DNA of 64,000 bases from a virus (IMGVR_UViG_3300044679_000013:1816-65815); one strand, 5' to 3'. Shown: positions 3,081 through 57,347, counted from the stretch's first letter. Program-made: numbers and translations. Notes: generated by a model from the letters alone, not told the origin.

Positions 3081-3308
3081 ATGACTACAATCCATAATGA
3101 GGACTTCTCTCCAGCCTTGCGCCGACTCATGGAAGGGAAGGGACAGTCTAGCCCAACTACGGTTCTATGCGTCCAGCCAATTAATAGAGGAGCCGCTTTG
3201 TGTTATGAGGAACTGAGCGAGAAGGGTGTATGTCCGGTACATGGGCGGCAATGGAAGTACGTTGGAGCAGTCAGAAGGAGAAAACTTAGGGGGCTGACAC
3301 ATGGATAA
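3081..3308 (+). CDS. hypothetical protein, possible Zn-binding
   Basis: GAGGA RBS; C..C..CPVHG motif. Confidence 0.55.
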   Translation: MTTIHNEDFSPALRRLMEGKGQSSPTTVLCVQPINRGAALCYEELSEKGVCPVHGRQWKYVGAVRRRKLRGLTHG

Positions 3309-3323
3309 CGATACCGCTGGTCA
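3295..3323 (+). repeat. 11-7-11 palindromic gene-boundary site, copy 1 (degenerate left arm)
   Basis: TGACACATGGA-TAACGAT-ACCGCTGGTCA. Confidence 0.7.
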
Positions 3324-3362
3324 TTGCGAAAAAGTAGGCTAGTTTTTCTAAACGGAGGAAGC

Positions 3363-3632
3363 ATGGCAGAACGCGAATTGCAGTCTGTTCAGTATTGGCT
3401 TGCCGAGTTAGACCAGTACGGCAACCCTACGTTAATTGATGGAGCGCATTCGGACGCACAAGGCGCTAACCGCGCCGCATATCTCATTACGGCAATGCGA
3501 CTAGGGAAGCCTGACCGGGCCTTTGCCGTGGCGAAAGTGGAACTGTACACGTGCAAACCAAGCGCGGCGGGCGTAAATCTCGAAGCAGTCCGAACCATCA
3601 ATCAAGCTAAGGGCCGTTACGCAGGCAAGTGA
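3363..3632 (+). CDS. hypothetical protein
   Basis: GGAGG RBS before ATG 3363; stop TGA is the first triplet of site copy 2. Confidence 0.65.
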   Translation: MAERELQSVQYWLAELDQYGNPTLIDGAHSDAQGANRAAYLITAMRLGKPDRAFAVAKVELYTCKPSAAGVNLEAVRTINQAKGRYAGK

Positions 3633-3658
3633 CCAGCGGTTCACAAGACCGCTGGTCA
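3630..3658 (+). repeat. 11-7-11 palindromic site, copy 2 (perfect arms)
   Basis: TGACCAGCGGT-TCACAAG-ACCGCTGGTCA, followed by AAGGA and ATG. Confidence 0.9.
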
Positions 3659-3670
3659 AAAAGGAAAGTT

Positions 3671-3913
3671 ATGGAACTCCACGTCACGCCCGACGAATTC
3701 AGTAGATTAAAGGATTGGTCATTGCTTCACGAGTCCGAGTTTTTGGGCAAAGTCTATTCTCGCTGGCCGTGGCTTCGCGATAATCCGATCGGGGCAACGG
3801 TTCAAATCATTGTGGATTGGCGTCGCCCACAACCGAAGCGTGTATTCGACAACTGGCCGGATGGCTCCATTGTCACCCCTCGCAAGAACGGGGATGGGAC
3901 ATGGCGCTACTGA
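3671..3913 (+). CDS. hypothetical protein
   Basis: AAGGA RBS after the site; ATG 3671. Confidence 0.55.
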   Translation: MELHVTPDEFSRLKDWSLLHESEFLGKVYSRWPWLRDNPIGATVQIIVDWRRPQPKRVFDNWPDGSIVTPRKNGDGTWRY

Positions 3914-3931
3914 TCCAAAAGGGAGAGATTA

Positions 3932-4222
3932 ATGCGAAACACAGGACGAACTTCCGCCATGCTTCACCGAGCAGTAGCGGCGGCGTTGGAAGGTAAGCGC
4001 GTGATGGTGGTTGCAGCAACTTGGGATCAGGCCAAGCAGATGTATGAACGAGTTGCAAACATGCAAACCCCCAAAGACGCCCACAGAGTAAAGTTGACAC
4101 TCGATTACGGAGAAACAGGGCGTTTAGTATTCGTCGCAGATTCCCGCTGGCGAGACCATGAGCGCGGTTGGGCGGGAGACATTGTAGTAGATCACTACGC
4201 TTTCGAAAATAGCTGGCGCTGA
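3932..4222 (+). CDS. small P-loop-like protein
   Basis: RNTGRT motif, hydrophobic strand VMVVA, terminal IVVDH; resembles a helicase/terminase ATPase fragment. Confidence 0.5.
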   Translation: MRNTGRTSAMLHRAVAAALEGKRVMVVAATWDQAKQMYERVANMQTPKDAHRVKLTLDYGETGRLVFVADSRWRDHERGWAGDIVVDHYAFENSWR

Positions 4223-4248
4223 CGCGCGGTTAACGAGACCGCTGGTCA
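4220..4248 (+). repeat. 11-7-11 palindromic site, copy 3
   Basis: TGACGCGCGGT-TAACGAG-ACCGCTGGTCA followed by AAGGAGG and ATG 4259. Confidence 0.9.
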
Positions 4249-4258
4249 AAGGAGGATT

Positions 4259-4621
4259 ATGGGCTACACGTTGCTATCTGAGACGCGACCGAAGGCACGC
4301 AAGGACCACCGCTGCATTTGGTGCGGTCAGAAGATAGTGAAAGGGGAGCACTACGTTGCTGAGCGTTCCGTGTTCGATGGTGATATGCAGAACCACCACT
4401 GGCACAATGAGTGCTTGTCGGACGCCAGAAGTACCCAAGAAGATTATGAACGGATTTTTGTCTACGAAGCATCGCACGAAATAGTTCAACGAGGAGATGG
4501 TGGTTATGCAAATGAAGCTAAGGAAGTTTCGCCTATTCGCGGACGATGGCAGTACATCCATCAATATCAGTGTGACGGTCATGCCCAACGAAGGTTACGC
4601 TCTCGAAGAGCACGAACTTGA
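4259..4621 (+). CDS. Zn-finger hypothetical protein
   Basis: ARK.H.C..C...I..GE.Y...H..C motif common in phage accessory proteins. Confidence 0.65.
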   Translation: MGYTLLSETRPKARKDHRCIWCGQKIVKGEHYVAERSVFDGDMQNHHWHNECLSDARSTQEDYERIFVYEASHEIVQRGDGGYANEAKEVSPIRGRWQYIHQYQCDGHAQRRLRSRRART

Positions 4622-4751
4622 TCAGTTTGCAAAGGTAACTGCGCGGCGCATCGCGGAAGTGCTTCCCGGTTTGCCATTTTCAGACTTTGGCATCGAAAAT
4701 ACGCGCATTGAACCTGCCGCGACCAAGCAAGCCGTGTCACCTAGAAAATAA
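4497..4751 (+). CDS. hypothetical protein (start uncertain, overlaps upstream gene)
   Basis: Protein-like composition; GGAG upstream of alternative ATGs. Confidence 0.45.
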   Translation: MVVMQMKLRKFRLFADDGSTSINISVTVMPNEGYALEEHELDQFAKVTARRIAEVLPGLPFSDFGIENTRIEPAATKQAVSPRK

Positions 4752-4775
4752 TGGGTCCGAGGAGGGCAAGAAGAG

Positions 4776-5009
4776 ATGACCACGATTAAGTATCATCCTG
4801 ATCCCGAAATCAACGAACAGGTAGTCAAGGATGCGGTAGCGGCGGAAGTATCCGATTTAGCTGCCGGGTTCCCGCCAAGGCGATGGATTTGCCAGTGCGG
4901 AGCCAGTCACTCTCGCGGATGGTTTATGTCGGAGGGCGTGCACCGATGCTTAAAATGCGGCTACGTCGGCGAAGGCGGAGTGATGGTTGACGCCGGGGAG
5001 CGCCCGTGA
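4776..5009 (+). CDS. Zn-ribbon hypothetical protein
   Basis: CQC and CLKC motifs; GGAGG upstream. Confidence 0.6.
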   Translation: MTTIKYHPDPEINEQVVKDAVAAEVSDLAAGFPPRRWICQCGASHSRGWFMSEGVHRCLKCGYVGEGGVMVDAGERP

Positions 5010-5012
5010 ATA

Positions 5013-5424
5013 GGAAGGGAGACTGAGATGAGCTACCTAGAAGAGAACGGCCGCGCCATTCACATTCGAGCACAACGGGCTGGCGAAAAACCGGTTTATC
5101 GAAAGGTGTTTCTGATAGAGGAATTTCTTGACACTTCAACGCGCTGGACCTTTGACCCTACCTCGCACCCGTATGAATCTCGCGGCGAAGCAGAGAGGCG
5201 CAGGCAGCATCTCCAGAACGAGTATCCGTGGGCCGCATTCCGCGTCGTCTCGGGCGAGGTTAGCCACAAGAAAACGCCGGGCGGAACATACGGAAGAAGG
5301 CGTCGCAGGGTCCCAGAATGTATCGCGTGCGGACAACCTCTGGCGGAGCATTCCAAAGAACAAAACGAACACTGTGCAGGCGCGTCTAGGAAGGGATAGA
5401 GACTCGGAAGGGAGACTGAGATGA
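5013..5424 (+). repeat. 19-bp direct repeat GGAAGGGAGACTGAGATGA (5013-5031 and 5406-5424) bracketing gene 5028-5399
   Basis: Exact match read from sequence; includes RBS and ATG. Confidence 0.85.
5028..5399 (+). CDS. hypothetical protein with C-terminal CxxC-H-C motif
   Basis: RBS within the repeat; CIAC...EH...HC. Confidence 0.6.
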   Translation: MSYLEENGRAIHIRAQRAGEKPVYRKVFLIEEFLDTSTRWTFDPTSHPYESRGEAERRRQHLQNEYPWAAFRVVSGEVSHKKTPGGTYGRRRRRVPECIACGQPLAEHSKEQNEHCAGASRKG

Positions 5425-5618
5425 CAACTTGGAACCATATGATCTGTCCGAGATGTGGACACGACTTTTATGTGGATGCCGCCTACGGTCGTTGCGATGC
5501 CTGCCAGTGTACGTTTTACGCTGGGCAATCTGCGACTTCCATGAGGCGCACGCCTGCACCTGTCAATTCATTCAAGATCACGGCACCTAATGCAAAGAAC
5601 TGGTATTACACAGGATAA
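5421..5618 (+). CDS. small Zn-ribbon protein
   Basis: CPRC and CDAC motifs; RBS within the repeat. Confidence 0.6.
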   Translation: MTTWNHMICPRCGHDFYVDAAYGRCDACQCTFYAGQSATSMRRTPAPVNSFKITAPNAKNWYYTG

Positions 5619-5632
5619 TCGTGGCTGCTCCC

Positions 5633-5941
5633 TCGGATCGGCCCACGGACAAATAATTCAATGGCTAAGAATCCTCCCAAATTTCGCGTCGGCCAGGTGG
5701 TCAGTGTCAAATCCTTCTATGGAAATTTCACACCGGGGAAAACTGGGCCTGGATTTAAGGGTAAGCGCGGTTGGCGGCATGGATTCCAGTTCGGGAAGAT
5801 CGTAAAAATCTCGCCGACACCGAATAGGCCGCCATTCAGGCTAAGTGCTCCACACTGTTACTTTTTAGATGGCTGGATGTCGGCTCAGACGGAGGATGAT
5901 CTTAGAGCGTTAACGAGGAAAGAATCGGATCGGCCCACGGA
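5633..5941 (+). repeat. 17-bp direct repeat TCGGATCGGCCCACGGA (5633-5649 and 5925-5941) bracketing gene 5661-5951
   Basis: Exact match read from sequence. Confidence 0.85.
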
Positions 5942-5951
5942 GGAAAAATGA
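5661..5951 (+). CDS. SH3-like small beta protein
   Basis: PKFRVGQVV start and EDDLR.LT end typical of phage SH3/KOW-like proteins. Confidence 0.55.
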   Translation: MAKNPPKFRVGQVVSVKSFYGNFTPGKTGPGFKGKRGWRHGFQFGKIVKISPTPNRPPFRLSAPHCYFLDGWMSAQTEDDLRALTRKESDRPTEEK

Positions 5952-6217
5952 GCGTTGCACTGAGAACGATTTGCGTGCTTCTGTTGGCGGCGGTTGCGGC
6001 AAGAGAATACGTGCACCATCTCCCAAAGCAGCCGGAGGATATTCATGTGACTTCGGTTCAGGATGCCTACGGTCACGGATACTCGATTGTTTACAGCACG
6101 CCTCACAAACAGATTTTCGCCGCGACTGACGGTGACCAGCGGATTGAGGTATGCGTGGAGTGGCACAAGGGCGAAACTCTGGACAATCAGACGTGTAAAT
6201 TCGAGGACCCTCAATGA
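5948..6217 (+). CDS. secreted hypothetical protein
   Basis: Signal-like ALRTICVLLLAAVAA; GGAGG RBS; ATGA overlap. Confidence 0.6.
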   Translation: MSVALRTICVLLLAAVAAREYVHHLPKQPEDIHVTSVQDAYGHGYSIVYSTPHKQIFAATDGDQRIEVCVEWHKGETLDNQTCKFEDPQ

Positions 6218-6324
6218 CTCCATCCAGGATTCAGCGCAATAGGAGGAAGAGATGAGCGGACAGGTATTCATACTGTGGATCGTTTTGGTGGTCATCCTAA
6301 TAGCGGCGCTATCGAGAGGGGCTG

Positions 6325-6621
6325 ATGGCAGAGGATAAGCAGAGCACGCCGCGCAACGTTAGCACAATAGACTTACTGAAACACTTGTGCGCACTGCCGG
6401 ACTTTCGGCCTAAACGAGAACTCATCGGATGCCCACGCTGCGGCAGCAAATTACGCGCCTTCCGAGAGCAGCAGTGTTATGAATCGCCGCACAAATGGCA
6501 CTATGAGAGACCGGGGCGGAAGGCACGTCGCAAATGGTCACGTCCAGCAGCAATGCCGATGAACCGTCTGAACTCGGGGAACCCCAACTACACGCCGTAC
6601 CAAACAGGAGAATCGAAATGA
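6325..6621 (+). CDS. hypothetical protein (CPRC...C...H)
   Basis: Zn-ligand pattern; ATGA overlap with next gene. Confidence 0.55.
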   Translation: MAEDKQSTPRNVSTIDLLKHLCALPDFRPKRELIGCPRCGSKLRAFREQQCYESPHKWHYERPGRKARRKWSRPAAMPMNRLNSGNPNYTPYQTGESK

Positions 6622-7052
6622 CGAAAGAAGAACTGGCAGCCCGGTTGAACGGTCGGCAGTATCAAGAGGAAATCCGCGAAGACGAAGAGTTGATTGCCAA
6701 GCGGGAAGGTTTGCTCGTGATCTTTGGAGCGTCGGACGATCTGTGCGAGTTGCGGGGAGCGATTAACGATGAGGTCTCGGCGTGGCAAGGCGCGGATATC
6801 CACATCAGCAAGGGCGGCCAACTACTCGCAACTATCGAGAAAGATGAAGCCGAAGTGCTGAAGAAATATGGAGTCCTGAAAGTCGTGGAAGACGCACAAA
6901 AAGCGGCTACGAAGGTAACGGCGCAATGGTGCAAAACGAAGGATTTTTCGTGGACCTTGGAAACTTCCGCGCCGCACGCAACTTTCGACATCATGGAAGA
7001 CGAGGACGGCTACTGTCGCGGCGTCGTATTGGATTTGAAAGAATTACAGTAG
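6618..7052 (+). CDS. conserved phage hypothetical protein
   Basis: AGGAG RBS; LNGR.Y...LLVIFGASDDL.E.RGAI.DE...W....T..PHATF.I.ED...YCRG.V pattern of a widespread phage family. Confidence 0.75.
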   Translation: MTKEELAARLNGRQYQEEIREDEELIAKREGLLVIFGASDDLCELRGAINDEVSAWQGADIHISKGGQLLATIEKDEAEVLKKYGVLKVVEDAQKAATKVTAQWCKTKDFSWTLETSAPHATFDIMEDEDGYCRGVVLDLKELQ

Positions 7053-7166
7053 CCACGGAGACAGGTGACGGTAGGTAGGTCCCTGTCCCAAAGCTGCCAG
7101 ACGCGGAGACGTGCTTCGTAGAATAGAAAGGATTTTGAGAGCCAAGCGCAGGCCAGGAGGAATGAG

Positions 7167-7334
7167 ATGCTCAAGCTTATTGCGGGTTTCGTACTCGGTA
7201 TAACCCTAGGTTCGCGTATACCCGTTAACTTTCAGGCGCCATGGATTAGCGTGGTTGTCGCCGCATGTTCCGTAGGCATTCTCATTGGCGGGGCTGTCTC
7301 CAATCCAGGGAGTGCCGAGGAGCCAAGGAAATGA
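7167..7334 (+). CDS. small 2-TM membrane protein (55 aa, below cut-off)
   Basis: AGGAGG RBS; MLKLIAGFVLGITLGS...WISVVVAACSVGILIGGAV. Confidence 0.6.
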   Translation: MLKLIAGFVLGITLGSRIPVNFQAPWISVVVAACSVGILIGGAVSNPGSAEEPRK

Positions 7335-7504
7335 TGCCCAACTCAATCGAGGACGTTCCGATGGTCTGCGACATTTGCGGCTCAACCTTCCGGCTTGGCG
7401 ACTGTGAAGCGAAAGACGCTTACGAGCACGACGGACCCTATGAAGGTGAGATTGGCTGCCCTGTCGCGGATTGCGGCGGAACGATGCGCGAATTCGGACG
7501 ATAA
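7331..7504 (+). CDS. small Zn-ribbon protein
   Basis: CDIC and CPVADC motifs; ATGA overlap. Confidence 0.55.
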   Translation: MMPNSIEDVPMVCDICGSTFRLGDCEAKDAYEHDGPYEGEIGCPVADCGGTMREFGR

Positions 7505-7625
7505 ACGGAGGGCTGAATGAAACGACTATTTTACTAGAGTCTAAAGTCCTCTTGCGGTTCTGCCCATTTCAGAGTAAACCTTACGGTGTTTTTGGGCACC
7601 TAACCTCAGTTGAAAAGAGGCCCCA

Positions 7626-8234
7626 ATGCGCCGACTCTTGCTAGCCTTTCTCGTTCTCGCCAGCCCAGTTTTTGCCGACTCCATCCCGCAGCCAGTGACA
7701 AACCTGCCCATGACAGGAATGGAGGTCTTGGGATTCTTTAACTCTTCTACCAACTACGATTTGGGAGTAACGAATATTCCTCAAGGGACTACCATCTGCG
7801 GGGGGATTTGCGTATCCCTAGAGATGCAGGATGGAGTCACCACGGGTAGTTCCTCCCCTGCTGGGGAATTGAACTCTGCCTGGGTCTACGATTTCGGCCC
7901 TAATGGGTCCATAATGTTTGGCCATCTCGGAAAAGTCTCACTCATTGGCGATGAACTGACAGCCATTTTTAGCGGCAAGGAAGGTATAACATCTGGAGGT
8001 ATTCGGTCGTGGTATACCGTTCAGGGAACATATTCCGACAATATCTCCGGGTTATTAAAGGGAACAATTACCTACGGGACTGGGGGGATCGTCCTGAACC
8101 GAGAGCAGTATATTGGCACATCCCCAGTGCCAGAACCGGGAACGCTGGTTTTGCTTGGGACTGGGCTGCTGTTAGTCTACTTTGGCTTCTACAATGTTAC
8201 TCGGAGCCGTAAGCACCTTTTTCCCCGCCACTAA
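7626..8234 (+). CDS. PEP-CTERM sorting-domain protein
   Basis: Signal peptide MRRLLLAFLVLASPVFA-DSI; C-terminal VPEPGTLVLLGTGLLLV followed by basic residues. Confidence 0.85.
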   Translation: MRRLLLAFLVLASPVFADSIPQPVTNLPMTGMEVLGFFNSSTNYDLGVTNIPQGTTICGGICVSLEMQDGVTTGSSSPAGELNSAWVYDFGPNGSIMFGHLGKVSLIGDELTAIFSGKEGITSGGIRSWYTVQGTYSDNISGLLKGTITYGTGGIVLNREQYIGTSPVPEPGTLVLLGTGLLLVYFGFYNVTRSRKHLFPRH

Positions 8235-8813
8235 ATCGTTGGCTCGGATGTCGAAGTAGCAGAGCTTATTCTTTCGAGTGCATGGGGCGGTAAAAGAGGT
8301 TGCGGTCACGGTCGCGACTTTGGGCGGCGCAGGACAGGTCGATTCCGCACAATCATAGACGTTATAAGACTCTACGGTAATTCCTGTCTGTGGTAAGGGC
8401 GGCTCCCATTGAAGCGGGACGTTCTCTGCCGTAATCGTTCCTACGGTCAGATTAATCGGTGCGTTCGGGATTGGGTTGGCAGGGACTGCGGCAGAGACTT
8501 GAGAACTGTATCCGCTTTCGCCAGAAGAATCTACGGCGGTAGCCACATAGAAGTAAGTTTGGCTGAATCCCACGGTCGTATCCGTGTAGGCGCAGGTCGA
8601 GCTCATTGGACTTGTGCCGAGGATCGTATAAGGTCCGCCACTGGTTGTACTGCGGTAGAAATTGAATCCTGTGGCCGCTGCGCCTGTTGGGGAAGGCGTA
8701 CAGGATAGGGCGACACTTGGACCCGTGCTGGAGGTTGCTGGAGTGACTTTGGCCTTTACCTGCCCAAATAAAGGCAGGCTAATAGCTAGGACGAAAGAGA
8801 TCAGATAACGCAT
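8172..8813 (-). CDS. secreted fibronectin type III domain protein
   Basis: Signal ...LPLFG-Q; FNFYRSTTSGGPY...YTD..V...TYFYVATAVD..GES Fn3 motif plus a second Fn3. Confidence 0.8.
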   Translation of the reverse strand: MRYLISFVLAISLPLFGQVKAKVTPATSSTGPSVALSCTPSPTGAAATGFNFYRSTTSGGPYTILGTSPMSSTCAYTDTTVGFSQTYFYVATAVDSSGESGYSSQVSAAVPANPIPNAPINLTVGTITAENVPLQWEPPLPQTGITVESYNVYDCAESTCPAPPKVATVTATSFTAPCTRKNKLCYFDIRANDLVAGKKVLTAPSNIVEAKVD

Positions 8814-11800
8814 TGGGATTCTCCTTAAGTATGGAAGCTTTGATATTCGCGAACATTCCTAAAGGTGGGGCGGGGACTGCAATGACTGGGATGCCCATAT
8901 TCAGCATGAGTGAAAACGGTTCGGCGGCGGCGGCTAGACTTGTTGCGAGTCCCGTATTTCCCGGAAATCCGTAGTACATGTCCTCATCGCAAATTGCGAA
9001 TTGGGCGTCTGGAGACTCAGTACAGATTGTGTCTGTGCCTTCAAACTGTTCTCCGGCGTGGTTATTGCCGTTTTCGTAGTGATGGGCGTACCAAGTCGTT
9101 CCGCCTGTTTTCGCAACACTGAAAAGTGAGTTTTGGCCGAGGGCGCAAGTAAAGTTTGGCGGGTTGGTTTGTGTCGGCGTGCCTGCGGTATTGATTGAAC
9201 TCGTAATTAAGATTGGTAGCGAGTCATCATTCAGAATTGTTGAGACGGCAGAGTGCATCTGCGCCCCACCGGGAGAAGTCGAGCAGTTTCCACCTGTTCC
9301 ACCAGAGGGCAAGGTATAAAGCAATTGGCAGTCAGAAAGATTTGAGCAGCTTGGATCAGAGATTGCCGCGAGGAATTGGTTCAGATAGTAGTTTGGATTC
9401 GAAGCCGTTCCGAGCCAATTAAACCCGCCAGAAGGATGGCCGTTTTGATTGCCTGAAGTCGTGCCTGTTAATGCCGGCGAATTTCCCACAGTCCAGATCA
9501 CGTAATCACAACCAGAACACTGTCCCGGTTGGCCTGACGTTCCCCAGCCCGATAGCCATGTAAACGTCCCAGAGGAGAGCATTCCGCCAGCGTGAATCCC
9601 AAACGTGTAAATGCCCGTTGTAATCGGGACTTCACAGGTCAGGGTTGTTCCGGCTGGGCAAGAGGCTGAGGAAATTGGCGCGTAGAGAGTTGCGTAGGTT
9701 CCAATCGTCCCAATTCCCGTAACGTCGTATTCGAGTCCGGTTCCTGTGCCGCCTGTCGTGGCATGGCCTTGCCCGAGGCTGGCTCCCGTGCCTGCCGTGA
9801 CTTGAGTTAGAGCCGTGACTACTCCGCCCGAGACTGTCGCGGTATAAGTATCTCCGTAAGCTCCCGTGATGGTGTCGCCGTTTGTGTAACCAGTCCCGCC
9901 GTGGCTAGCAGTCACACCGTAGGTATAGACTGCCGTTCCCGTCATTCCATCGGTGTCCAAGGTTTCGCAGGTTCCGTTAGCTAAGGACACAATGAACTGC
10001 ATGTGGCGCCCCGGCCCACCTTGAGAACCTGAGCCGAGAATGAACTCTACTTTGTCGTCGTAGTTGTCCGTAATCATCGCGCCAGAGAAGGCGAGTCCAG
10101 TGCCAAGCGTCGTGTAGCCGAATCCGGGGCAAGTCGAGATATCATAGAGATTCGTTGTCAGCGAGCTTATGACGCAGTTTCCAGTTCCGCCTGGGCACAA
10201 AGCTCCGGTAGTGTAAGCGAGCACATCGCTTTTCAGCCAGAACGGAGAAGCATAAGGCGTAGAACTATAAAGTGAGTACCAGAGAGCTTCATTTGATCCG
10301 GGGCGCTTCGCCAAGCTTCTTGAAAACGCGCCATAATTCATCGGCGTGTGGTACCAAGCCTTACTGTCTGACGTCACATCTGGGATAAAGCAGGGCACGT
10401 TATTGCAGAAACTGGAGTCAATATGGCCCGAGAAAATATCCTGTCGCCCCGAGGTCACGAGGACATACATATAATTCCCAAGGCCATCGGGAAGAGAAAT
10501 CCCATGATCGTAAGATTCGCCAGAGGCTGAAGGGCTAAGGGAATTCGTTGCAGTCGTGTAATCCGCCATCGCTACAAATGGCGAGCACGGAGCACTATCT
10601 GATCCACTGCATGGAATCGAGAAATCGTAGGCAAATGTCCCGACCGTTGAGGTGACGGCACAACCCGGAGCGCCATTGCAAAGCGGAAAAGGTGCGGTGA
10701 CAAACGGCTGCCAGCCTTGCCCTTGGAGATAACCCGTGGTGTCTGAAGTTGTACTCAGATTCGATAGTGTCTGCGCGACCTTCTGCACGTTGTAGAGTGT
10801 GCCGACGACCTTCGTGCTATTCGTGGAGGAATTCGTCAGCAGAATCTGCCCGTTTAACTGTGTGCAGGTCGTGAAGCCAGAAAGCCCTATCCATGAATTT
10901 GCGGTGAAGGTATTGCTGGCTGTGATTGTGACGATGTTTGACGCGATGGAACAAGCTGTCGAAGTTGCGGTCAGATTGTTTGTTAGAACAGATGGCGTTC
11001 CGGTCTGCGAGAAAACGGCGTTTATGCTGAGTGCAGACGTGACATTGACCGTACAAGGCAAAGTTCCCGAACATCCCCCACCATACCAACCGCTGAAAAC
11101 ATAAGAACCTGACGGAGCAGCATTTAACGTCACGCTGCCCGTAAATCCGACAGAGCACGTTCCGGGACAGTTGATTCCGATAGGGCTACTGGTCACAATC
11201 CCTGTACCCGAGACGGAAACGGAAATACTTCCACTACTCGCGGAAAATGTCGCGGACACGGAAGACGCGCCAGTTGCGGTGATTGAGCAAGTTCCCGTGC
11301 CCGAACAACCCGCCCCGGACCATCCTGTAAACGCATACCCAGAACTCGGAGTGGCCGTAAGCACAACTACTGTGCCACTCGCATAGGTTCCGACACAGGC
11401 ACTCGGACAATTGATCTGACCTTGATTGTCAGCAACCGATCCGCCTGTCGGAGTGGTTACCGTGATGGTGGGGTTTTGCGAGAATGTTAAGCTGGCCTCA
11501 TCAAGGTTTGCTGTTAGGGTAGTTCCTGCGGAGCCTACGTCTAGCTCGAAATTTACACCGGAATTTTCGCCATAACTGCCGGGAAGGGCGCCGGAACTGT
11601 AGCAGTTGTTAATCGTGTGCTGTACGCCGTCAATCGTGATTGTGTCATAGCACTGTTTCGGATAGCCTCCGGTGCCTGAGGTGTCTCCGCAGGTCCAGTG
11701 GTCGTTCATCGTGATGTGATGCCAGGCCCCGGTAGCGAAGCCAGAAGCGCAAGAGATCGTCGGCGAGGTGTTGTGCCAAGCTTTCCCACCTTGATCCCAG

Positions 11801-46898: not shown

Positions 46899-47176
46899 TA
46901 CTGGATTCCGGGTCGGTCCTCAAGCTTCGGCTGCTTCACTACAATCGCTTTGTACATCTGCCGATTGTCTGGCGCAAATGGAATGGAGAACTTCAGAACG
47001 AGTTCAATCTGCCCGTTAACCGGAAAGTTGCCCTCGGGCCCACCATTAATGACAGATGCGCCTTCTACTTTCAGGATGTAGAACAGGGCGTAGGGATCAT
47101 CCAGTTTGAGCTGAACCATATCGCCTTCGCGGATCTCGTTTCCGAGTTTGTCGAGAGGCCAGAGTTTAGCGGACAT
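46898..47176 (-). CDS. hypothetical protein (SH3/KOW-like)
   Basis: DKLGNEI.EGD.V motif; AAGGAG RBS. Confidence 0.6.
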   Translation of the reverse strand: MSAKLWPLDKLGNEIREGDMVQLKLDDPYALFYILKVEGASVINGGPEGNFPVNGQIELVLKFSIPFAPDNRQMYKAIVVKQPKLEDRPGIQ

Positions 47177-47532
47177 TAGGCTCCTTTGATTGCGGCACAC
47201 ATTCCACATCGGTAGACGCGGCAGGTTTTGGGGTTGTGGGCATAACTAGATCCGCAAGGTACTCTAGCCCCTTCCCCATCCCGCCTTCGTCTACTAGGCG
47301 CTGTAGTTCGACCCGTTGCATGACCGGGAGATTCCTTACTATTTCGTTGTAGCAGTCTGCCACTTTCTTGTGTTCCAGATTGCTCGGGTCTATTGGAACG
47401 ATCTCCATCGCTATTCGTACCGTTCCAGTTCCGACATTTACGCTTGGCGCATCGCTTCGGGAGTTCTCTTGTGATCCACTCATGCCCACATACCTCGCAT
47501 TGGCACCATAGTGCCGGAATCTCTTTGTACAT
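47176..47532 (-). CDS. Zn-ribbon protein (probably leaderless)
   Basis: CEVCGHEW...PKRC...C; C-terminal H...C....C..C; TGGTACTAT extended -10 6 nt before the ATG. Confidence 0.6.
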   Translation of the reverse strand: MYKEIPALWCQCEVCGHEWITRELPKRCAKRKCRNWNGTNSDGDRSNRPEQSGTQESGRLLQRNSKESPGHATGRTTAPSRRRRDGEGARVPCGSSYAHNPKTCRVYRCGMCAAIKGA

Positions 47533-48570: not shown

Positions 48571-48585
48571 ATCTTATTAATGCGC

Positions 48586-49239
48586 TCATACACTTACAGG
48601 CTGTCCAAGTTGGCGCCGGATGTTATTCAATCCTGACTTGAGCCGACGTTCTACCCAGCCTTGATCTCGTCCTAACTTGGCAGCAATCTTGTATTCGCGG
48701 ATCGGATTATCCGTATACAGGCCGAAATAGAGTTCCACTACCAAGCGCTCGGCTTGAGAAAGAGAAGTCATGGCCCGAGTGATCTTTTCGCCATCAAACT
48801 TTACGCGGGTTGCTTCGGCGAGACCGTCGCGACCTGGTTGTGTATCGAACCAATCGTGGTACTCCCTGACTGGGTGACTATAATTACTGAATTCTGGGCT
48901 TTGCCATTCATTCTGGAATATCTTCTGCTGCACCTTCTGTTCATCAATAATGGCGTTTACTATCAAGCGCTTAACATAGTAGGGCTGGTTCCAGTAGCGC
49001 TCTGGGCATTTCATTAACTTAATCAGCGCAGCTCCGGCTAAATCCTCAGCTTTGCATTGAAGTGTTCGCGTTGCCGGAAAGCCGCTGCGAAGGAAATAGG
49101 TTTCCTCGACACTCCCACCGCCTGCATTAATCAGTTTCCGGCGCCACTTGGCAACGAAGCTTCGCGCAATATGTCCGCAGAGTCGGCGGTACTGCTCAAT
49201 GAACTGCTCTTTGGTCTCAACGTGTGGAACGGGCTGCAT
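48586..49239 (-). CDS. sigma-70-like RNA polymerase sigma factor
   Basis: Region-2-like AEDL...ALIKL...YVKRLIVNAIID; region-4 LSQAERLVVELYFGL...IAAKLG...VERRL..GL..IR; start 49239 by TAATG coupling (alternative 49311). Confidence 0.8.
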   Translation of the reverse strand: MQPVPHVETKEQFIEQYRRLCGHIARSFVAKWRRKLINAGGGSVEETYFLRSGFPATRTLQCKAEDLAGAALIKLMKCPERYWNQPYYVKRLIVNAIIDEQKVQQKIFQNEWQSPEFSNYSHPVREYHDWFDTQPGRDGLAEATRVKFDGEKITRAMTSLSQAERLVVELYFGLYTDNPIREYKIAAKLGRDQGWVERRLKSGLNNIRRQLGQPVSV

Positions 49240-49652
49240 TAGTCTTTCCCATTCCGCTTCTCTAAATTCTCCCGAGTATCGCAGTCCACTTCTTTCTGGT
49301 GGGCGCGCCAAATATCTAAGCTGTCTGAATCCAGATACTTAACTTGGCAGGTGAGTTCTGTTTGGCCGTGCATCAATTTGACTGGCCAGTACATGAAATT
49401 GCTGTCGATCCAATCAATTGCCTGTTGGCGCGTGCGGAACGATCTCTGGGCGGTTTCGTAAATTGCTTTTCCGTCGATACACACTGCCGAATAGCCGTCG
49501 AAGATAACCTGAGCGCAATCTTGGCGATTCTCAGTTTCTTGGCAAACATCTTCCTTTAGGTCGCCCCATCCTGAGTCACAAGAGTATTCCAGAATGTAAG
49601 GGACTTTTGGCGCGTGAATTGTCAGCAGAAGTAGAGCTATTGCTGGAACCAC
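49239..49652 (-). CDS. secreted Cys-containing hypothetical protein
   Basis: N-terminal hydrophobic AIALLLLTIHA. Confidence 0.55.
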   Translation of the reverse strand: MVPAIALLLLTIHAPKVPYILEYSCDSGWGDLKEDVCQETENRQDCAQVIFDGYSAVCIDGKAIYETAQRSFRTRQQAIDWIDSNFMYWPVKLMHGQTELTCQVKYLDSDSLDIWRAHQKEVDCDTRENLEKRNGKD

Positions 49653-50005: not shown

Positions 50006-50024
50006 CATTACATCAGGAGGCGTT

Positions 50025-50832: not shown

Positions 50833-50835
50833 TTT

Positions 50836-52001: not shown

Positions 52002-52085
52002 GATTCATTCCAGAACTCTCTAGCAGTAATTTCATCACTTGCGAGATCGCCTAAAACGGCTTTCCAGATTTCCCGCATGGGTTAC

Positions 52086-52373
52086 TCATTCCGGCGTGAC
52101 GCGCATATAGTAAGAGGTCTTCCCGTGGCCGAACCGCTTCATCTTGCCAGCACTTTGCAACACCTGGAGTTTGCGGTTGGCTTGATTAATTGTTAAGCCA
52201 AACCGCTCCATGAGTTCTTTAACTCTAAAAGCTCCCTCTGGAAGCGGCGCCGGAGCAGCCAGTGCAGCCATGTCAGATTCAATCTGTTCCCACAAGTCAG
52301 GCGGCGGCACAGGCTTTACAGCGACGTTACCTTTACGGCTGGAAGAGGGTAAAGCTCCTTTAGGATTCGGCAT
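52086..52373 (-). CDS. winged-helix protein (start uncertain)
   Basis: F.VKELMERFGLT...A.RKL..L...GK helix-turn-helix pattern. Confidence 0.6.
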   Translation of the reverse strand: MPNPKGALPSSSRKGNVAVKPVPPPDLWEQIESDMAALAAPAPLPEGAFRVKELMERFGLTINQANRKLQVLQSAGKMKRFGHGKTSYYMRVTPE

Positions 52374-53152: not shown

Positions 53153-53162
53153 CTAGGCTTTC

Positions 53163-53582
53163 TTACCCGACGTACGCGATCATAATTCCTTCAGGATCGG
53201 AGGGGACCGTAGGCTCCCCCAAAGCTACATCTGAGATTTGCCGCATCAAGTTGTCAAAGGTTGCGCGACTCACTCCAATAAAGTCTGTTCCTTTTTGCGC
53301 GCCCACCATCAAGCAGCCTTCCGTGTCATTTGGATAGTTTCCCCAATGAATTTCAATCGCTTCGAACCCAGGTACATCTTGAAGGTGGGGTGTGACCGTC
53401 CGAAAATTCTTTGACATCTGGAGTAGGACTGTATAAATGCCATTCGGAATGCAGTAGGGCTTGCCTTCGGACTGATCTTTGCGCGGCTCCATGCAGTAGG
53501 AGAAGAATCCGCCATTCAGAAACAACTCGCCAATCGTGCTATTTGGCGAATAAACCTCCCTTCTGACAAGAAGGTTTATCAC
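53163..53582 (-). CDS. DUF5675-type protein (probable endolysin/muralytic)
   Basis: STIGEL...CIP.G.Y...L.DVPG...IEIH.GN...DTEGCL.VG signature. Confidence 0.8.
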   Translation of the reverse strand: MINLLVRREVYSPNSTIGELFLNGGFFSYCMEPRKDQSEGKPYCIPNGIYTVLLQMSKNFRTVTPHLQDVPGFEAIEIHWGNYPNDTEGCLMVGAQKGTDFIGVSRATFDNLMRQISDVALGEPTVPSDPEGIMIAYVG

Positions 53583-53810
53583 TCAATCCCCGTGATACCA
53601 GTGTGGTTTCGGCGGAACTATCGGATCAGTTCCATTCTCAACAGGTTGGTAAGGATCTTCCCTCAGGCCGCAACGGTCGTACCACAACGAATTCAGCCGC
53701 TCTTTTGCCTTGATGATCAATCTATGATTCTTCAGGAAAACCGTGCAGACCGCACAAATAAAGGCGAAACTGACATGATGCTCGACTTGAGCGATCCATG
53801 ACGTATCCAC
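53583..53810 (-). CDS. small membrane protein (holin-like)
   Basis: Single TM segment; adjacent to the endolysin candidate. Confidence 0.45.
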   Translation of the reverse strand: MDTSWIAQVEHHVSFAFICAVCTVFLKNHRLIIKAKERLNSLWYDRCGLREDPYQPVENGTDPIVPPKPHWYHGD

Positions 53811-53972
53811 TTACTCACTAACCGCCTTGCCTACTGGTTTCAGTACATGGTGGTACAAAGGTAAAGTCGTATGATGATGTACTGCTTTCAGGACGTGGAC
53901 GACAGCATGTACGTTTTGCCCTGTATCTACTCCGGTATTGAACAATGTGAGCACGAGCAAAAACGTCGTCAC
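53811..53972 (-). CDS. 53-aa His-rich peptide (below cut-off)
   Basis: MTTFLLVLTLFNTGVDTGQNVHAVVHVLKAVHHHTTLPLYHHVLKPVGKAVSE; GTGA overlap, abuts next gene. Confidence 0.5.
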   Translation of the reverse strand: MTTFLLVLTLFNTGVDTGQNVHAVVHVLKAVHHHTTLPLYHHVLKPVGKAVSE

Positions 53973-54760
53973 ACTGTAACCCAAGGATGGCCGGAATGAA
54001 TGATCTTAAGATCGGTCTGCGGATCATCCAGAACACTGAGCGCCATCCAGAAGAAGCCTTTTAGTCCCCAGGTCGCGGCCCAACTATTTTGCACCAATAC
54101 AGCAGGTGGGCAGGTCGCAGGACGTAAGGTAGGAGTCGGTCCAACGTCGCAACCTAGAATCAGAACTTCGTGCCCTTCGTTGGCAGATTTCCCGCTGGGA
54201 ACATAGACGCCAGTTAGCGCTACTTCTTCGCTCTCGAAGTTATCGTCTACGGTAAAACCAATCTCTACTGGCCAGGGCGTCGGGTCGGCAATTACCGAGA
54301 GTGCAGTCTGTGACCCTACTAGGCCGTGATACGCTCCCATGCGATACTCGGCCGCGTTCGCATCCATTGCCGCCGTAGGTTGCTGAATCTTCTGAGATGA
54401 ATCCGGATAAAGCGAATCTTCGCAGCAACCGTTTGCAATCGAGACATTCGATCCTGTCACACCTTCTGAGCCGTCATCGTTTGGGAAGTTTCCATCTGCA
54501 ATAAGTTCTTTGGCGTAAAGATACAGCGGACTGAGGACAGGTTGCTTGGCGAAATATTTGCGGAATATCCACTCCATCGCAGACGAAAAGGCATGGCCCG
54601 TACACGATCCAAGTTCGCCTTGGTCTTTGATCGGCCCGCACCATGGGCGAAGATCGACAACTGGAGGCAGACTAGGACTTGTCCGCGAAAGCATCCGATG
54701 GGCGGGAAGTGGTGCGGGGATTTTGCGACCGTATCTTCGAATCACTGCTTGTCTACCCAT
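53969..54760 (-). CDS. papain-like cysteine peptidase (C1 family)
   Basis: LP..VDLR, KDQG.LGSCT (catalytic Cys), GHEV (His), QNSW...WG..G (Asn). Confidence 0.9.
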   Translation of the reverse strand: MGRQAVIRRYGRKIPAPLPAHRMLSRTSPSLPPVVDLRPWCGPIKDQGELGSCTGHAFSSAMEWIFRKYFAKQPVLSPLYLYAKELIADGNFPNDDGSEGVTGSNVSIANGCCEDSLYPDSSQKIQQPTAAMDANAAEYRMGAYHGLVGSQTALSVIADPTPWPVEIGFTVDDNFESEEVALTGVYVPSGKSANEGHEVLILGCDVGPTPTLRPATCPPAVLVQNSWAATWGLKGFFWMALSVLDDPQTDLKIIHSGHPWVTV

Positions 54761-55065
54761 GTCGAGCTTTGCTCAATCTGAAGAATATTTTCTGCTCGCT
54801 CAACATCCCCGGCTTGTGCTTTCGGCCCATGATCTGCTTGGAACCAATCGAGAAATCGGCTCATAGCCCTCCCCCAAGTTTTGCCCTGTTCTGCCGCTCT
54901 GGCCGCATGACTGGAAATCGTCTCGTCTGGCTGGCCTCTGAGAACTATAACGTTCGCCATAATGTCTACTGCAACTAAGCTTCTGTGCAGCCAGCCTTCT
55001 TTCGCAGCTTGAGCTTCCTGAATTTGGGCTTCTTGCGGAGTTAGGGGAGTAATGGGGTCTGACAT
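54742..55065 (-). CDS. conserved phage lysis-region hypothetical protein
   Basis: D...N....G.PDETISS.A.R.....WG.....FLD.F..DH motif. Confidence 0.7.
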   Translation of the reverse strand: MSDPITPLTPQEAQIQEAQAAKEGWLHRSLVAVDIMANVIVLRGQPDETISSHAARAAEQGKTWGRAMSRFLDWFQADHGPKAQAGDVERAENILQIEQSSTWVDKQ

Positions 55066-55141
55066 GCTATAATCTTTGTTGACAGATCCGCCACGCCTCT
55101 CCTTCGATGTTGAAGTGATGCGCATAGCTGGCGGATTTTTT
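55065..55141 (+). ncRNA. candidate antisense small RNA in the lysis module
   Basis: TGCTATAAT extended -10 (55065-55073), then ATCCGCCA/TGGCGGAT stem and T tract. Confidence 0.35.
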
Positions 55142-55236
55142 ATGGAATTATGAGGGGATTTAATTTGGCCAGATTGTGATCCGCCCGCGAATTACCGCTA
55201 TCCCCTCGTGGCCTCAGTAATGCCGAGGCGCAAACT

Positions 55237-55458
55237 TTATCTCGAATACAAACTTGACTTCATATACAGCCCTGCCACTGCCGCAATTCCTGTCGAGAGT
55301 CCTGCTTTGAAGTAATGGCCGATACAGCTTAGACTCGTGCAGGCTCCCGGCTGATTAATTGCATTCGCCACAGAGCCCGCAGCGGTCGCCGCAAAAAGCA
55401 CGATGACCGCTTGAGCGGCGTGCGGCAAACTGTTCCAGAAGGCTTTAAGTTTGTTCAT
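55237..55458 (-). CDS. holin-like 2-TM protein
   Basis: GAGGAG RBS; two hydrophobic helices; upstream of lysis enzymes. Confidence 0.6.
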   Translation of the reverse strand: MNKLKAFWNSLPHAAQAVIVLFAATAAGSVANAINQPGACTSLSCIGHYFKAGLSTGIAAVAGLYMKSSLYSR

Positions 55459-55567
55459 TAGACTCCTCAATAAGAGAACCAAGCTAAATAAATCAGTAGC
55501 GCCAAATTCACTACGCTCATAATGAATCCGCAGGCAGCCAATGTCTCAAATAGCGGGAATTTCTCGC

Positions 55568-55897
55568 TCATGCGAATTGACTCCGTTGGTCCTTGGCCGG
55601 CCACGGCGCAAATCCATACTCTGCGCCATCAGGGAAGGCTATCCTAGCCCTATGCTGATTCATGCGGTCCTGAGCCTCAAGAACTTGCTGTTCGGCTCTC
55701 TGGCGCTGTGCCTGCGTCTGCTGGAGCCATCCCTTGACGACGTTCCAACCGTGCGCGACGATAAGTTTTATCTTGGTCGGCGAAACACGAACAGCCACAC
55801 GCAATTCTTCCACGAGGCGACGAGCTTTTGCCCCAGTGATGAAGTGCTTAGGCTGCTCTGAAGGGTCTTGAGGAAATTCCAGAAGGCCGATTTTCAT
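55568..55897 (-). CDS. hypothetical protein, first gene of the lysis/late operon
   Basis: ORF downstream of promoter 56020-56049. Confidence 0.55.
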   Translation of the reverse strand: MKIGLLEFPQDPSEQPKHFITGAKARRLVEELRVAVRVSPTKIKLIVAHGWNVVKGWLQQTQAQRQRAEQQVLEAQDRMNQHRARIAFPDGAEYGFAPWPAKDQRSQFA

Positions 55898-56019
55898 TTT
55901 GGGAGCGTACTAGGCCGTCTACGATCATTCGGGCTTCGGGACTACTCGCCGCCCTGTGGCCAGACTACTTTTAGTGCTCTGTCGGGAAACAGAGACTTGA
56001 TGAGGTGATCTACAAAGCG

Positions 56020-56049
56020 ATAGTAGACCTACTGTCGGTGAAATTGCAA
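56020..56049 (-). promoter_or_regulatory. sigma-70-type promoter with GTAGGTCTAC palindrome over the -10
   Basis: TTGCAA-18-TACTAT; shares GTAGGTCTACTAT with promoter 62334-62363. Confidence 0.65.
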
Positions 56050-56186
56050 GAGAAATCTACAGGAATCTTGGTAGGAGGCTCAGAATTTCACCCTAGTTGG
56101 GGGCTAGGGTATTTCCTGATTCGCCAGATTTGCGTCTTATTAGGGCCATGTCGGAATCCAACTAACTACGCTCATATTCCTCCTTT

Positions 56187-56215
56187 TGACAAGTGGTGTC
56201 GTGAACCGCTGGTCA
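56187..56215 (-). repeat. 11-7-11 palindromic site, copy 4
   Basis: - strand TGACCAGCGGT-TCACGAC-ACCACTTGTCA; begins with the stop codon of gene 56213-56962 and is followed by AAGGAGG and ATG. Confidence 0.85.
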
Positions 56216-56962
56216 GATTGCTTCGGTTTGTGACTCGGTTACACAAATCACGCCGCATTCAATGTTCCGTTCCTTGCGCCGATCAGTTATAACCAGAGGC
56301 AGTTCGTCCAAGAATATCCGCTTGCCGTGATACTCAACTAGGCGACAGCCGATCTTTCTGCTCTGCTTGCAGCGTTTCTCAAAAATCGCTGGGAAGTAAG
56401 TTCGCACTCTGTCCCAATATGTCGGGGACGTAGACTTCACGCATCCGATGCAGTTATTGTTCTTGAATCCGAGCGTGTACATCACCGGGAGTTCAATGCC
56501 TGCATCCCTAATCATCTGATAGCAATGGTCCTTGGTTAGCTGCCAGTCGCGCAAAATCCACTCAAATTCCAGGTCCGGGTTCTGCTCTTCAAATCGTGCT
56601 ATGCGTCCCACTTCGTCGAATGTCAGCCCGAAAATATGAAGATCGTTCGGCTGTTGGTAGTCGCAACGCGGCACCTTCTTCATCTCGCGGGTGCATGGCG
56701 CTCCATGGACGCCGGACATATATCTAGTCTTCTCGAATACTTCGTCAATGTCGGCGTATTTCTTGGACGCAATAAACCCGACGCTCTTACCTATCCACTT
56801 TTCCACGTCAGTCACAAACCGCAGGTTGTCTGGATGTTCGGATGCGGACGTGTCGCAGTACACCACGTGTGCGTCCGGGTACTTTTCAACCGCCAGTTTC
56901 GCCGCGCAAGCTGACGCCGCACCGCACGAGAACCAGACAATTACGCGCCCGTTAGCGTCCAT
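56213..56962 (-). CDS. PAPS-reductase-like (PP-loop) protein
   Basis: WFSCGA.SA, EHPDN.RF, CT...K..P, Y.LGF.NNNC.GCVK motifs. Confidence 0.8.
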   Translation of the reverse strand: MDANGRVIVWFSCGAASACAAKLAVEKYPDAHVVYCDTSASEHPDNLRFVTDVEKWIGKSVGFIASKKYADIDEVFEKTRYMSGVHGAPCTREMKKVPRCDYQQPNDLHIFGLTFDEVGRIARFEEQNPDLEFEWILRDWQLTKDHCYQMIRDAGIELPVMYTLGFKNNNCIGCVKSTSPTYWDRVRTYFPAIFEKRCKQSRKIGCRLVEYHGKRIFLDELPLVITDRRKERNIECGVICVTESQTEAI

Positions 56963-57302
56963 CGGTTTCCTTTTCCAGCATTACGGTTTCGTTGGGGAAA
57001 ACCACAGACACTTTCATCTGGCGGTATTCGGTCATCAAACGTTCTGCCAGTGCCAAAGCTTTATGACGTATGCTTGCAATCTCTTCTGGGAAGCGCGGGT
57101 AGTTGATGAGACCAACAGCGATGCCCGGTTCACTTCCGTTCTTGTAAATGAACCGCGTGGCGGTCACGGTGACGCACAAACCACCATCGTTGGCGTAGGT
57201 CTGTAACAGGTTGTACGCCATGTCAATAGATCGAATTTCGCTGGTGTACGACTCCCGACAACCGACGTAGATGGTAGCCGTGTATGTGTCAACTGTTTTC
57301 AT
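56952..57302 (-). CDS. conserved phage hypothetical protein
   Basis: AAGGA RBS; GLCVTV..T.FIY..G.EPG..VGLINYPRFP motif. Confidence 0.75.
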   Translation of the reverse strand: MKTVDTYTATIYVGCRESYTSEIRSIDMAYNLLQTYANDGGLCVTVTATRFIYKNGSEPGIAVGLINYPRFPEEIASIRHKALALAERLMTEYRQMKVSVVFPNETVMLEKETDGR

Positions 57303-57318
57303 AAGTCCTTTAGAACGG

Positions 57319-57347
57319 TGACCAGTGGTCTCGTTAACCACTCGTCT
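57319..57347 (-). repeat. 11-7-11 palindromic site, copy 5
   Basis: - strand AGACGAGTGGT-TAACGAG-ACCACTGGTCA upstream of the RBS of gene 57302. Confidence 0.85.

Follow-up and report, generated by a model that had tools for sequence, protein, structure and literature searches.

Oriented 29-bp sites at gene boundaries of uncultured phages and their probable role in cassette exchange

The closest described phage system to the element analysed here, a 29-bp site repeated at gene boundaries, is that of the PeSLs of T4-type phages (Arbiol et al. 2010; Comeau et al. 2014). A PeSL consists of a sigma-70 promoter and a stable terminator stem-loop, is common within one phage group, and forms a repeated motif limited to hyperplastic regions of small ORFan genes (PMC2839356, PMC4122927). 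We investigated the 29-bp sites in a 64,000-nt stretch of virus DNA (the window), which comprises bases 1816–65815 of the 65,815-bp IMG/VR virus record IMGVR_UViG_3300044679_000013, complete per CheckV, and in other viral records and contigs that carry the same motif. Sites of one family, with a defined anatomy and a fixed orientation and order of variants, separate unrelated genes in these phages, and breakpoints between contigs fall at them. We consider it probable, at roughly two chances in three, that crossover at the sites, by whatever mechanism, is the reason for their conservation. Full-text searches for such a motif or system in phages yielded nothing matching beyond the PeSLs, which is not proof that it is unpublished.

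Both PeSLs and the 29-bp sites lie in hypervariable regions of small open reading frames (ORFs), span the interval from stop codon to ribosome-binding site (RBS), and mark joints of insertion, deletion or replacement. Unlike in PeSLs, no promoter consensus (in a scan for E. coli-type signals), no terminator consensus and no selected stem were found at the 29-bp sites; they show instead a dyad layout of arm, spacer and arm with discrete, ordered spacer classes, and the motif is common to phages with almost no genes in common. A second likeness is to the boundary sequences at mosaic joints of lambdoid phages and to Red-promoted homeologous recombination (PMC2327257). In these, short conserved gene boundaries serve as crossover points and phage annealing proteins drive mosaicism. 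Those boundary sequences differ in that they are not known to form one dyad-symmetric motif family or to have ordered variants across unrelated phages.

The phage arrays can also be compared with cassette systems of bacteria. Integron and CALIN arrays consist of co-oriented, promoterless and mostly single-ORF cassettes with imperfect inverted-repeat sites, and many of them have no integrase nearby. Their attC sites are 57–141 bp long, conserve a folded single-strand structure with paired R and L boxes rather than a sequence, and are recombined by IntI next to attI and Pc. The phage arrays share the co-oriented promoterless cassettes (no promoter consensus was found at the sites), the unrelated ORF content and the imperfect inverted-repeat separators; they differ in that their sites are conserved in sequence and not in pairing, that they lie in phage genomes, and that IntI was not found, the tyrosine recombinase of one motif-bearing record (discussed below) scoring far below the IntI cut-off. 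The pdif/Xer modules carry accessory genes on plasmids between alternately inverted 28-bp 11-6-11 sites with XerC and XerD arms and use the host XerCD. They share with the phage sites the 11-bp inverted arms, the short centre and the accessory-gene modules, and have a recombinase encoded elsewhere, whereas the phage sites have a centre of 7 bp rather than 6, are direct repeats, and occur in phages rather than plasmids. The inner arm bases (GGT/ACC) differ from the ATAA/TTAT of the dif consensus. Stoperators of cluster A mycobacteriophages are 13–14 bp long, not dyad-symmetric, spread genome-wide and recognised by a repressor that the phage itself encodes. Like the 29-bp sites, they are short asymmetric sites in small intergenic gaps with one orientation relative to transcription, but they are not known to be linked to cassette exchange.

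The clean trading of single accessory genes between unrelated phages is a long-standing question of phage evolution, for which the present family provides a searchable signature, comprising a 29-bp junction, single-gene slots, a fixed variant order, and recent (99% or more) transfers ending at junctions. The family furthermore gives access to the pool of accessory genes in uncultured phages of soil and peat, and makes the choice between site-specific and homology-anchored exchange testable at the bench.

The sites in the window and their family

An initial annotation of the window had described five copies of an 11-7-11 palindromic site, and all five, with their spacer sequences, were verified. 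Its consensus, at up to three mismatches, gave nine strand-matches, all of them at the five sites, where 100 shuffles led to an expectation of 0.01; a profile hidden Markov model built from 82 family members found the same five sites in the entire 65,815-bp record and no sixth copy. The profile scores were 18.6–28.2 bits along transcription and at most 8.4 bits in the reverse direction. Site 1 (3295–3323, +; TGACACATGGA-TAACGAT-ACCGCTGGTCA) is the weakest copy, at 18.6 bits, with GGA in place of GGT. Site 2 (3630–3658, +) has the spacer TCACAAG and perfect 11-bp arms, site 3 (4220–4248, +) and site 5 (57319–57347, −) have the class-A spacer TAACGAG, and site 4 (56187–56215, −) has the class-B spacer TCACGAC and differs by one base from the site at 47515 of another viral record, G001. 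Throughout, G000 denotes the window's own record, G001–G007 other viral records, L-numbers the compared loci or contigs, and X1, X3 and X4 sequencing runs.

In three copies the upstream ORF terminates in frame at the opening TGA of the site, as the initial annotation had claimed, namely site 2 (ORF 3363–3632), site 3 (ORF 3932–4222) and site 4 (the PAPS-reductase-like gene); the first triplet of site 5 is AGA, and its upstream ORF stops 48 nt before the site. An RBS-like purine run and an ATG follow sites 1, 2, 3 and 5; after site 4 comes no more than an 11-codon ORF. The left arms of sites 2 and 4 are the same, and the right arms of sites 1–3 are identical. The genes enclosed by directly repeated pairs were also as annotated: the three rightward sites enclose three small ORFs without a family, and the leftward pair, downstream of the ERF and YqaJ genes, encloses a 116-aa ORF and the PAPS-reductase-like gene. 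Rightward genes extend from ~62,700 via the ends of the record to ~8,200, and leftward genes from ~62,660 to ~8,200; both site groups therefore lie ~5–7 kb into two divergent early operons. At site 1, the next start codon lies at a distance of 40 nt, versus the usual 10–13 nt. The 35 nt after this site (3324–3358) contain a small inverted repeat (GAAAAA...TTTTTC), and site and 35 nt together are 83% like positions 5230–5293 of L225, a stretch at and after a class-B site.

Pattern scans revealed the motif in six further IMG/VR records and 31 metagenome contigs. The records are G001 (82.7 kb; five sites, one of them degenerate), G002 (13.7 kb; two sites), G004 (57.8 kb, with terminal repeats, complete; one site), G005 (three sites), G006 (six sites) and G007 (103.6 kb, 93% complete; one class-C and one partial site within the 3-kb stretch read). 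Four contigs that duplicate G001 or G004 (L211, L215, L228 and L240) and three doubtful low-score matches (G004 24205, L237 122 and L239 811) were left out, and the final census comprised 82 oriented sites in 33 arrays. Because the collection scans demanded a TMACRAN spacer, every contig has at least one class-A-like or B-like site by construction; the other spacer classes came from relaxed scans inside contigs already collected. The gapless scans overlooked a class-C site with a 2-nt insertion in its left arm (L234, ~514–552, −), and the census is thus a lower bound.

The six viral records compared have almost no common DNA apart from the sites. No protein family common to all motif contigs was found, the most widely common being a DNA methylase, and core proteins, where common at all, are 25–44% identical; same-class sites reach 29/29 identity in different contigs. 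A structural region gave no blastn match to named phages, and the motif was absent, at up to three mismatches, from 54 loci related via YqaJ and PAPS-reductase proteins (at most 61% identity). Distant PAPS-reductase loci carry a different inverted repeat, TAAC(C/A)AGTGG-ACTGTGTAAAG-ACTGGTCA (L168:9464–9492 and L171:10755–10783), whose outer arms resemble those of the site (four mismatches to the pattern) and which may be either chance or a remote cousin. A loose motif scan of viral_contigs returned 117 single-match loci, which were at chance level and were discarded, and a lone strict match in L179/G003, with no further copies, was taken as chance. Positions 2037–2135 of L223, at the contig end, are an inverted copy of 69–165, just after the first site of that contig; they were not counted, are probably an assembly artefact at a palindromic site, and caution against over-reading single short contigs.

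Site anatomy was derived from the 82 sites, whose consensus is TGACACGCGGT-TnACGAn-ACCACnnGTCA. Positions G9, G10, A19, C20 and C21 are invariant, the outer TGAC/GTCA are at least 90% conserved, the spacer is 7 bp in 82 of 82 sites, and the inner GGT/ACC triplets stand one helical turn apart. Left and right arms favour different variants, the left mainly TGACACGCGGT and the right, read as complement, mostly TGACTGGTGGT, TGACCAGTGGT or TGACCAGCGGT. The spacers form discrete classes, designated A (TAACGAG, 30 of 82 sites), B (TCACGAC, 26), C (CTGCTCA, 7), D (TACCGAA, 3) and E (GTGCCGA, 4), with various minor variants at the remaining 12 sites.

We then compared arm pairing with shuffled controls. 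Arm columns 5/25, 6/24 and 8/22 are mismatched in 59, 54 and 47 of the 73 distinct sites, respectively; arm cells pair in 73.7% versus 75.4% after shuffling (498 of 500 shuffles at least as high), and the covariation score lies under the shuffled mean. Mismatched columns and pairing below the shuffled level indicate that the dyad symmetry is not maintained by base pairing; the base-pair-preserving RNA covariation that the initial annotation had named beforehand as contrary evidence was absent. RNA folding beat shuffles for two of the five window copies (sites 2 and 5; z −5.3 and −3.7), and the other three behaved like shuffles. At the window sites, no sigma-70-type promoter was found in a scan that covered the E. 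coli-type consensus only, and no intrinsic terminator was found on the transcribed strand, the one terminator-like match being at site 5 on the non-transcribed strand; Rfam and tRNA scans gave no match. Judged from sequence, the signature is that expected of a protein-read double-stranded site with asymmetric arms and spacer, and not of an RNA or DNA hairpin. The layout agrees with a generic tyrosine-recombinase core site in its inverted arms, 11-7-11 spacing, asymmetric spacer and strongly directional profile scores.

Array order and breakpoints at the sites

Across the census, the upstream ORF (30 codons or more) has the site's TGA as its stop in 51 of the 82 cases and the TAA of a class-A spacer in 8 more, and an ORF start codon follows within 40 nt at 68 sites, mostly 10–13 nt after the site. 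Exactly one ORF of at least 40 aa occupies 33 of the 47 slots between consecutive sites (median slot ~290 nt), and all sites of an array share one orientation, along transcription. Slot proteins are mutually dissimilar, save for one overlapping contig pair, and the 15 A-to-B slots therefore hold unrelated genes. Pfam matches were obtained for 3 and PHROGs matches for 11 of 58 slot proteins; those assignable include a Lar-like restriction alleviator, a DNA methyltransferase and a PAPS reductase (one slot protein matching phrog_424, which bears that name).

The spacer classes follow the order E < D < A < B < C along transcription, with 49 concordant and 2 discordant pairs, a concordance reached by none of 10,000 within-array shuffles (L218, which overlaps L223, was left out and two sites found by eye were added); this is a strong regularity rather than a clean probability, because ranking and test draw on one data set and some arrays may share descent.

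Comparison of contigs placed exchange breakpoints at the sites. The 99% identity of G001 to L222 sets in at base 2 of a class-A site and extends over 193 nt, and upstream of it the two are unalike; the 99% identity of G001 to L221 covers 89 nt and stops 22 nt into the next site. On G001 the matches of L222 and L221 adjoin each other, so that one 73-aa cassette (A-gene-B) is present in two different arrays; each copy has its own few differences, which speaks against an assembly chimera. Similarly, in run X3, window positions 3628–4217 (590 nt, 99.5%, three differences) recur on a contig of 2,214 nt with a depth of 14.1; the match starts 2 nt before site 2 and ends 3 nt short of site 3. Nothing else of this contig is listed on window 1–9000, adjacent window bins have a depth of 1–2 in X3, and run X4 shows two of the three differences again. 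The run evidence consists of Logan contigs, X3 comes from a different study than the probable source run, and what was read of the X3 contig is its match to the window. Loose ends in X3 at 4215 and 4249 probably reflect a further copy of the site in a different context. The short joints 3297→4461 (X1) and 3665→4744 (X3), with sides of 22–36 nt, were not relied upon.

Further events involve the window's own record and other viral records. The 84 bp at site 5 (57264–57347) are 92% identical to G004 40325–40408 (L205:325–408); they comprise the site, the RBS and 13 codons, nothing is common upstream, and the likeness breaks off inside the ORF. The two ORFs have the same first 13 codons (MKTVDTYTATIYV) and are then unrelated, which means that one of them is chimeric. 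Between G005 and L213, the flanking genes are 86–90% identical and the variable middle matches at sites only; the class-A site of L213 directly follows the stop of the common gene, where G005 has 1.3 kb extra. A breakpoint between L216 and L221 lies at a left-arm-like half site. Among matches of at least 95% between non-duplicate contigs, five of eight internal ends fall at a site or half site, with sites making up less than 2% of the sequence. Invariant gene content across the sites had been named beforehand as an outcome that would speak against exchange; we found unrelated genes between like sites, cassettes of 99–99.5% identity in differing contexts, and breakpoints at the sites.

G001 46972–47059 (L188:6972–7059) consists of a broken class-B-like site with a degenerate right arm, 30 nt, and a complete class-A site; this empty 33-nt slot looks like the scar of a one-ended insertion. 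The 30-nt stretch has a small inverted repeat of its own.

Mechanism of exchange and alternative explanations

We propose that the 29-bp sites may act as conserved junctions of integron-like arrays in early genome regions of soil and peat phages, the cassettes being promoterless and mostly of one gene. A cassette unit would extend from the right arm of a site through an RBS and an ORF to a stop codon, usually the TGA that opens the next site, and co-infecting phages would swap such units by crossover inside sites that share a spacer class, which would preserve both the reading direction and the order of site classes. Each site would be a double-stranded, protein-recognised core with two unlike 11-bp arms and a 7-bp asymmetric overlap, cut and rejoined by a tyrosine-type recombinase acting in trans; its source could be the host or integrase-bearing relatives such as G006, and most arrays would be orphans, as CALIN arrays are among integrons. 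A recombinase core site is suggested because the layout is 11-7-11, the bases adjacent to the spacer are invariant, the arms are unlike, the spacers are discrete and ordered, and the motif spans unrelated phages. Protein binding, the recombinase nature of the protein and the position of the strand cut are what we infer for such a predicted core site. We regard exchange by a site-specific recombinase as possible, at about one chance in three. The initial annotation had proposed a recombinase-driven phage cassette exchange system, of which the bracketing of exchangeable cassettes is supported by the differing contents and the breakpoints at sites, the recombinase being a candidate part.

More tentatively, the arrays might represent a phage-borne counterpart of integrons with heterospecific simple sites, in which each class (GTGCCGA, TACCGAA, TAACGAG, TCACGAC or CTGCTCA) would recombine with its own class only. 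A recombinase in trans would then swap slot genes between unrelated co-infecting phages without deletion or scrambling of the array, as a natural recombinase-mediated cassette exchange that trades anti-defence and other accessory genes. If both the recombinase and the class-specific exchange prove true, this would be a new kind of natural cassette-exchange system and might provide orthogonal simple sites.

Several observations weigh against this proposal, beginning with the search for a catalyst. In six-frame searches, the tyrosine recombinase family PF00589 matched in G006 only, and not in G000, G001, G002, G004, G005 or G007; the serine recombinase family PF00239 matched in G005 only, 15 kb from the array, and not in G000, G001, G004 or G006. 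Among the (near-)complete genomes, G000 and G004 were searched for both families and G007 (93%) for PF00589 only. Pfam analysis of 71 non-structural ORFs of G000 revealed no recombinase, HNH protein or transposase, ERF and YqaJ being the only recombination proteins among them; the 1.8 kb of the record outside the window are covered by two ORFs only, and the one scanned is a DNA methylase. The G006 recombinase (298 aa), which in itself counts in favour of the proposal, is encoded just downstream of the array on the same strand, after an HNH gene, and has homologues in L216 and L221; its Xer- and IntI-like scores are weak, far below the cut-offs of both, and it may simply be a phage integrase. 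A 341-aa protein of G004, considered as a hidden recombinase, showed no likeness to the G006 enzyme and was placed by PHROGs among Sak4-like annealing proteins. Furthermore, the strict pattern of the phage-type site was found in none of 185,579 species, represented by one genome each.

The exchange events themselves add to these objections. Two were one-ended, namely that between G000 and G004, with its far end in an ORF, and the right end of the G001 cassette, and exchange between two sites by a recombinase does not predict such events. An 81%-identical gene occupies a B-to-C slot in L234 and an x-to-A slot in L229, and in L217 another gene, with a homologue in L210, lies free of flanking sites. 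Exchange thus does not keep strictly to register, and strictly slot-specific exchange, as an absolute rule, is ruled out by these two cases. Replacements between G001 and L240 or L228 lie away from any site, and, with arms that are conserved in any case, a breakpoint cannot be located more finely than to the site as a whole. All evidence comes from metagenome contigs, and the class order is derived from the arrays that it describes, which possibly share descent; both count against the proposal.

Homology-anchored exchange without a site-specific enzyme is the nearest alternative, and we consider it possible, at slightly lower odds than the site-specific version. The 29-mer would be a common linker for short-homology recombination of the PeSL type, used by the phages' own annealing-protein and exonuclease pairs (ERF with YqaJ, or Sak4 with a PD-(D/E)XK nuclease), often with one end anchored at a site and the other joined illegitimately, and the differing spacer classes of an array would lower homology within it and so prevent deletions. 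The gene neighbourhoods are consistent with this: the ERF–YqaJ pair directly precedes the array in both G000 and G002, and in G004 the PD-(D/E)XK nuclease gene ends in a site and is followed by an HNH gene and the Sak4-like annealing protein. The one-ended events agree no less well with exchange of the ERF/YqaJ type, and searches of the three (near-)complete genomes gave no recombinase (G007 for PF00589 only). Sites of one class can match exactly between contigs, whereas those of a single array differ at five or more positions. The precedent of the PeSLs likewise spans stop codon to RBS (PMC2839356, PMC4122927). Homology alone, however, leaves unexplained the dyad symmetry and the position-specific conservation of the invariant GG and ACC beside the spacer, and no separate function emerged that could account for conservation of the motif, neither a sigma-70 promoter or terminator nor, in three of five copies, a stable hairpin. 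A length of 29 bp with mismatches is also very short for annealing-protein recombination.

A purely regulatory role is unlikely, and less likely than exchange. The site would then bind a dimeric protein, as an operator or a roadblock of the stoperator kind, and so control early accessory genes, and the mosaic joints would be a by-product of its being the sole conserved sequence in a hypervariable region. Dyad symmetry without selection for pairing, inner triplets one helical turn apart, and an orientation fixed with transcription between stop codon and RBS all suit a bound dimer, and mycobacteriophage stoperators are likewise oriented sites in short intergenic gaps. No protein is common to the motif-bearing contigs, however, and a host regulator should have sites of its own, whereas the phage-type site is absent from the species genomes searched. 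The sites are restricted to cassette arrays and do not occur at other early genes, and a fixed class order around unrelated genes has no obvious regulatory reason.

It is improbable that the sites serve as targets at which a sequence-specific endonuclease of some of the phages, for instance an HNH homing enzyme, cuts. In that case the annealing and exonuclease genes would mend the broken genome of a co-infecting phage with the cutter's array as template, and neighbouring cassettes would be copied with variable tract ends. HNH genes do lie near arrays in G001, G004, G006 and L214, recombination genes adjoin the arrays, and one-ended events with arbitrary far ends occur. On the other hand, there is no HNH protein among the 71 scanned ORFs of G000, the genomes that bear HNH genes keep intact sites and would need protection from their own enzyme, and the HNH proteins of the contigs are not one family.

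An RNA hairpin in the polycistronic transcript, with a role in processing, stability or translational coupling, would suit the constant direction of transcription, the position between two ORFs and the good folding of copies 2 and 5, but is very unlikely and largely refuted by the pairing test, in that covariation is lacking, pairing falls below shuffled arms, three stem positions are mostly mismatched, three of five window copies fold no better than shuffles, no Rfam family matches, and a conserved loop with a variable stem is the reverse of a structural hairpin. Scarcely probable, too, is insertion at gene ends of a selfish palindrome of the REP or MITE type: small 11-7-11 palindromic repeats are abundant in some bacterial genomes, but these show the opposite pattern of perfect covarying arms and variable loops, G000 has only five copies and no Y1 or DDE transposase among its scanned ORFs, no phage relatives were seen that differ only by presence of the 29-mer, and at G005/L213, the sole junction compared for site presence and absence, the neighbouring genes differ too, so that it is not a simple insertion.

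An arms-only scan of bacterial genomes returned 76 loci, none with a phage-type spacer, which are mostly perfect palindromes of unrelated repeat families. Metagenome-assembled genomes of Actinomycetota/Acidimicrobiia (L251–L319, e.g. L265:1190–6352 and L252:329–7281) contain a dense repeat, (T/C)GACTCGCGGT-N7-ACCGCGAGTC(A/G), at about one copy per 1–2 kb, with perfect arms, varying 7-nt loops and compensatory changes of GGT/ACC to GAT/ATC; it is 11-7-11 like the phage site, with the opposite conservation pattern. Similar multi-copy palindromes are present in Isosphaeraceae, Pseudanabaena and Xanthomonas loci.

Genes in and around the window arrays

The rightward array is preceded by a 75-aa ORF (3081–3308, +) that stops at the TAA within the spacer of site 1. 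The cassette ORFs that follow encode 89 aa from an ATG or 102 aa from the TTG at 3324 (3363–3632, +), 80 aa (3671–3913, +) and 96 aa (3932–4222, +), none of them with a family, and the 96-aa protein had no relative among viral_contigs. The first gene past site 3 encodes a Cys-rich protein of 120 aa (4259–4621, +), a homologue of which lies inside the G006 array.

Upstream of the leftward array, an ERF-family single-strand annealing protein (58399–59112, −; PF04404, E 5.9e-12) and a YqaJ-type exonuclease (57674–58333, −; PF09588, E 3.2e-24) are encoded, each in the same place in G002. The cassette ORFs of this array encode a 116-aa protein matching phrog_4848, of unknown function (56952–57302, −), and a 249-aa protein with a PAPS-reductase domain (56213–56962, −; PF01507, E 2.4e-05).

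Elsewhere in the window, we observed a protein with a sigma-70 region-4-like domain (48586–49311, −; E 1.1e-4, below the cut-off) and a papain-family cysteine protease (53969–54760, −; E 5.7e-9). A protein with a PEP-CTERM sorting motif (7626–8234, +) hints at a host with an exosortase system.

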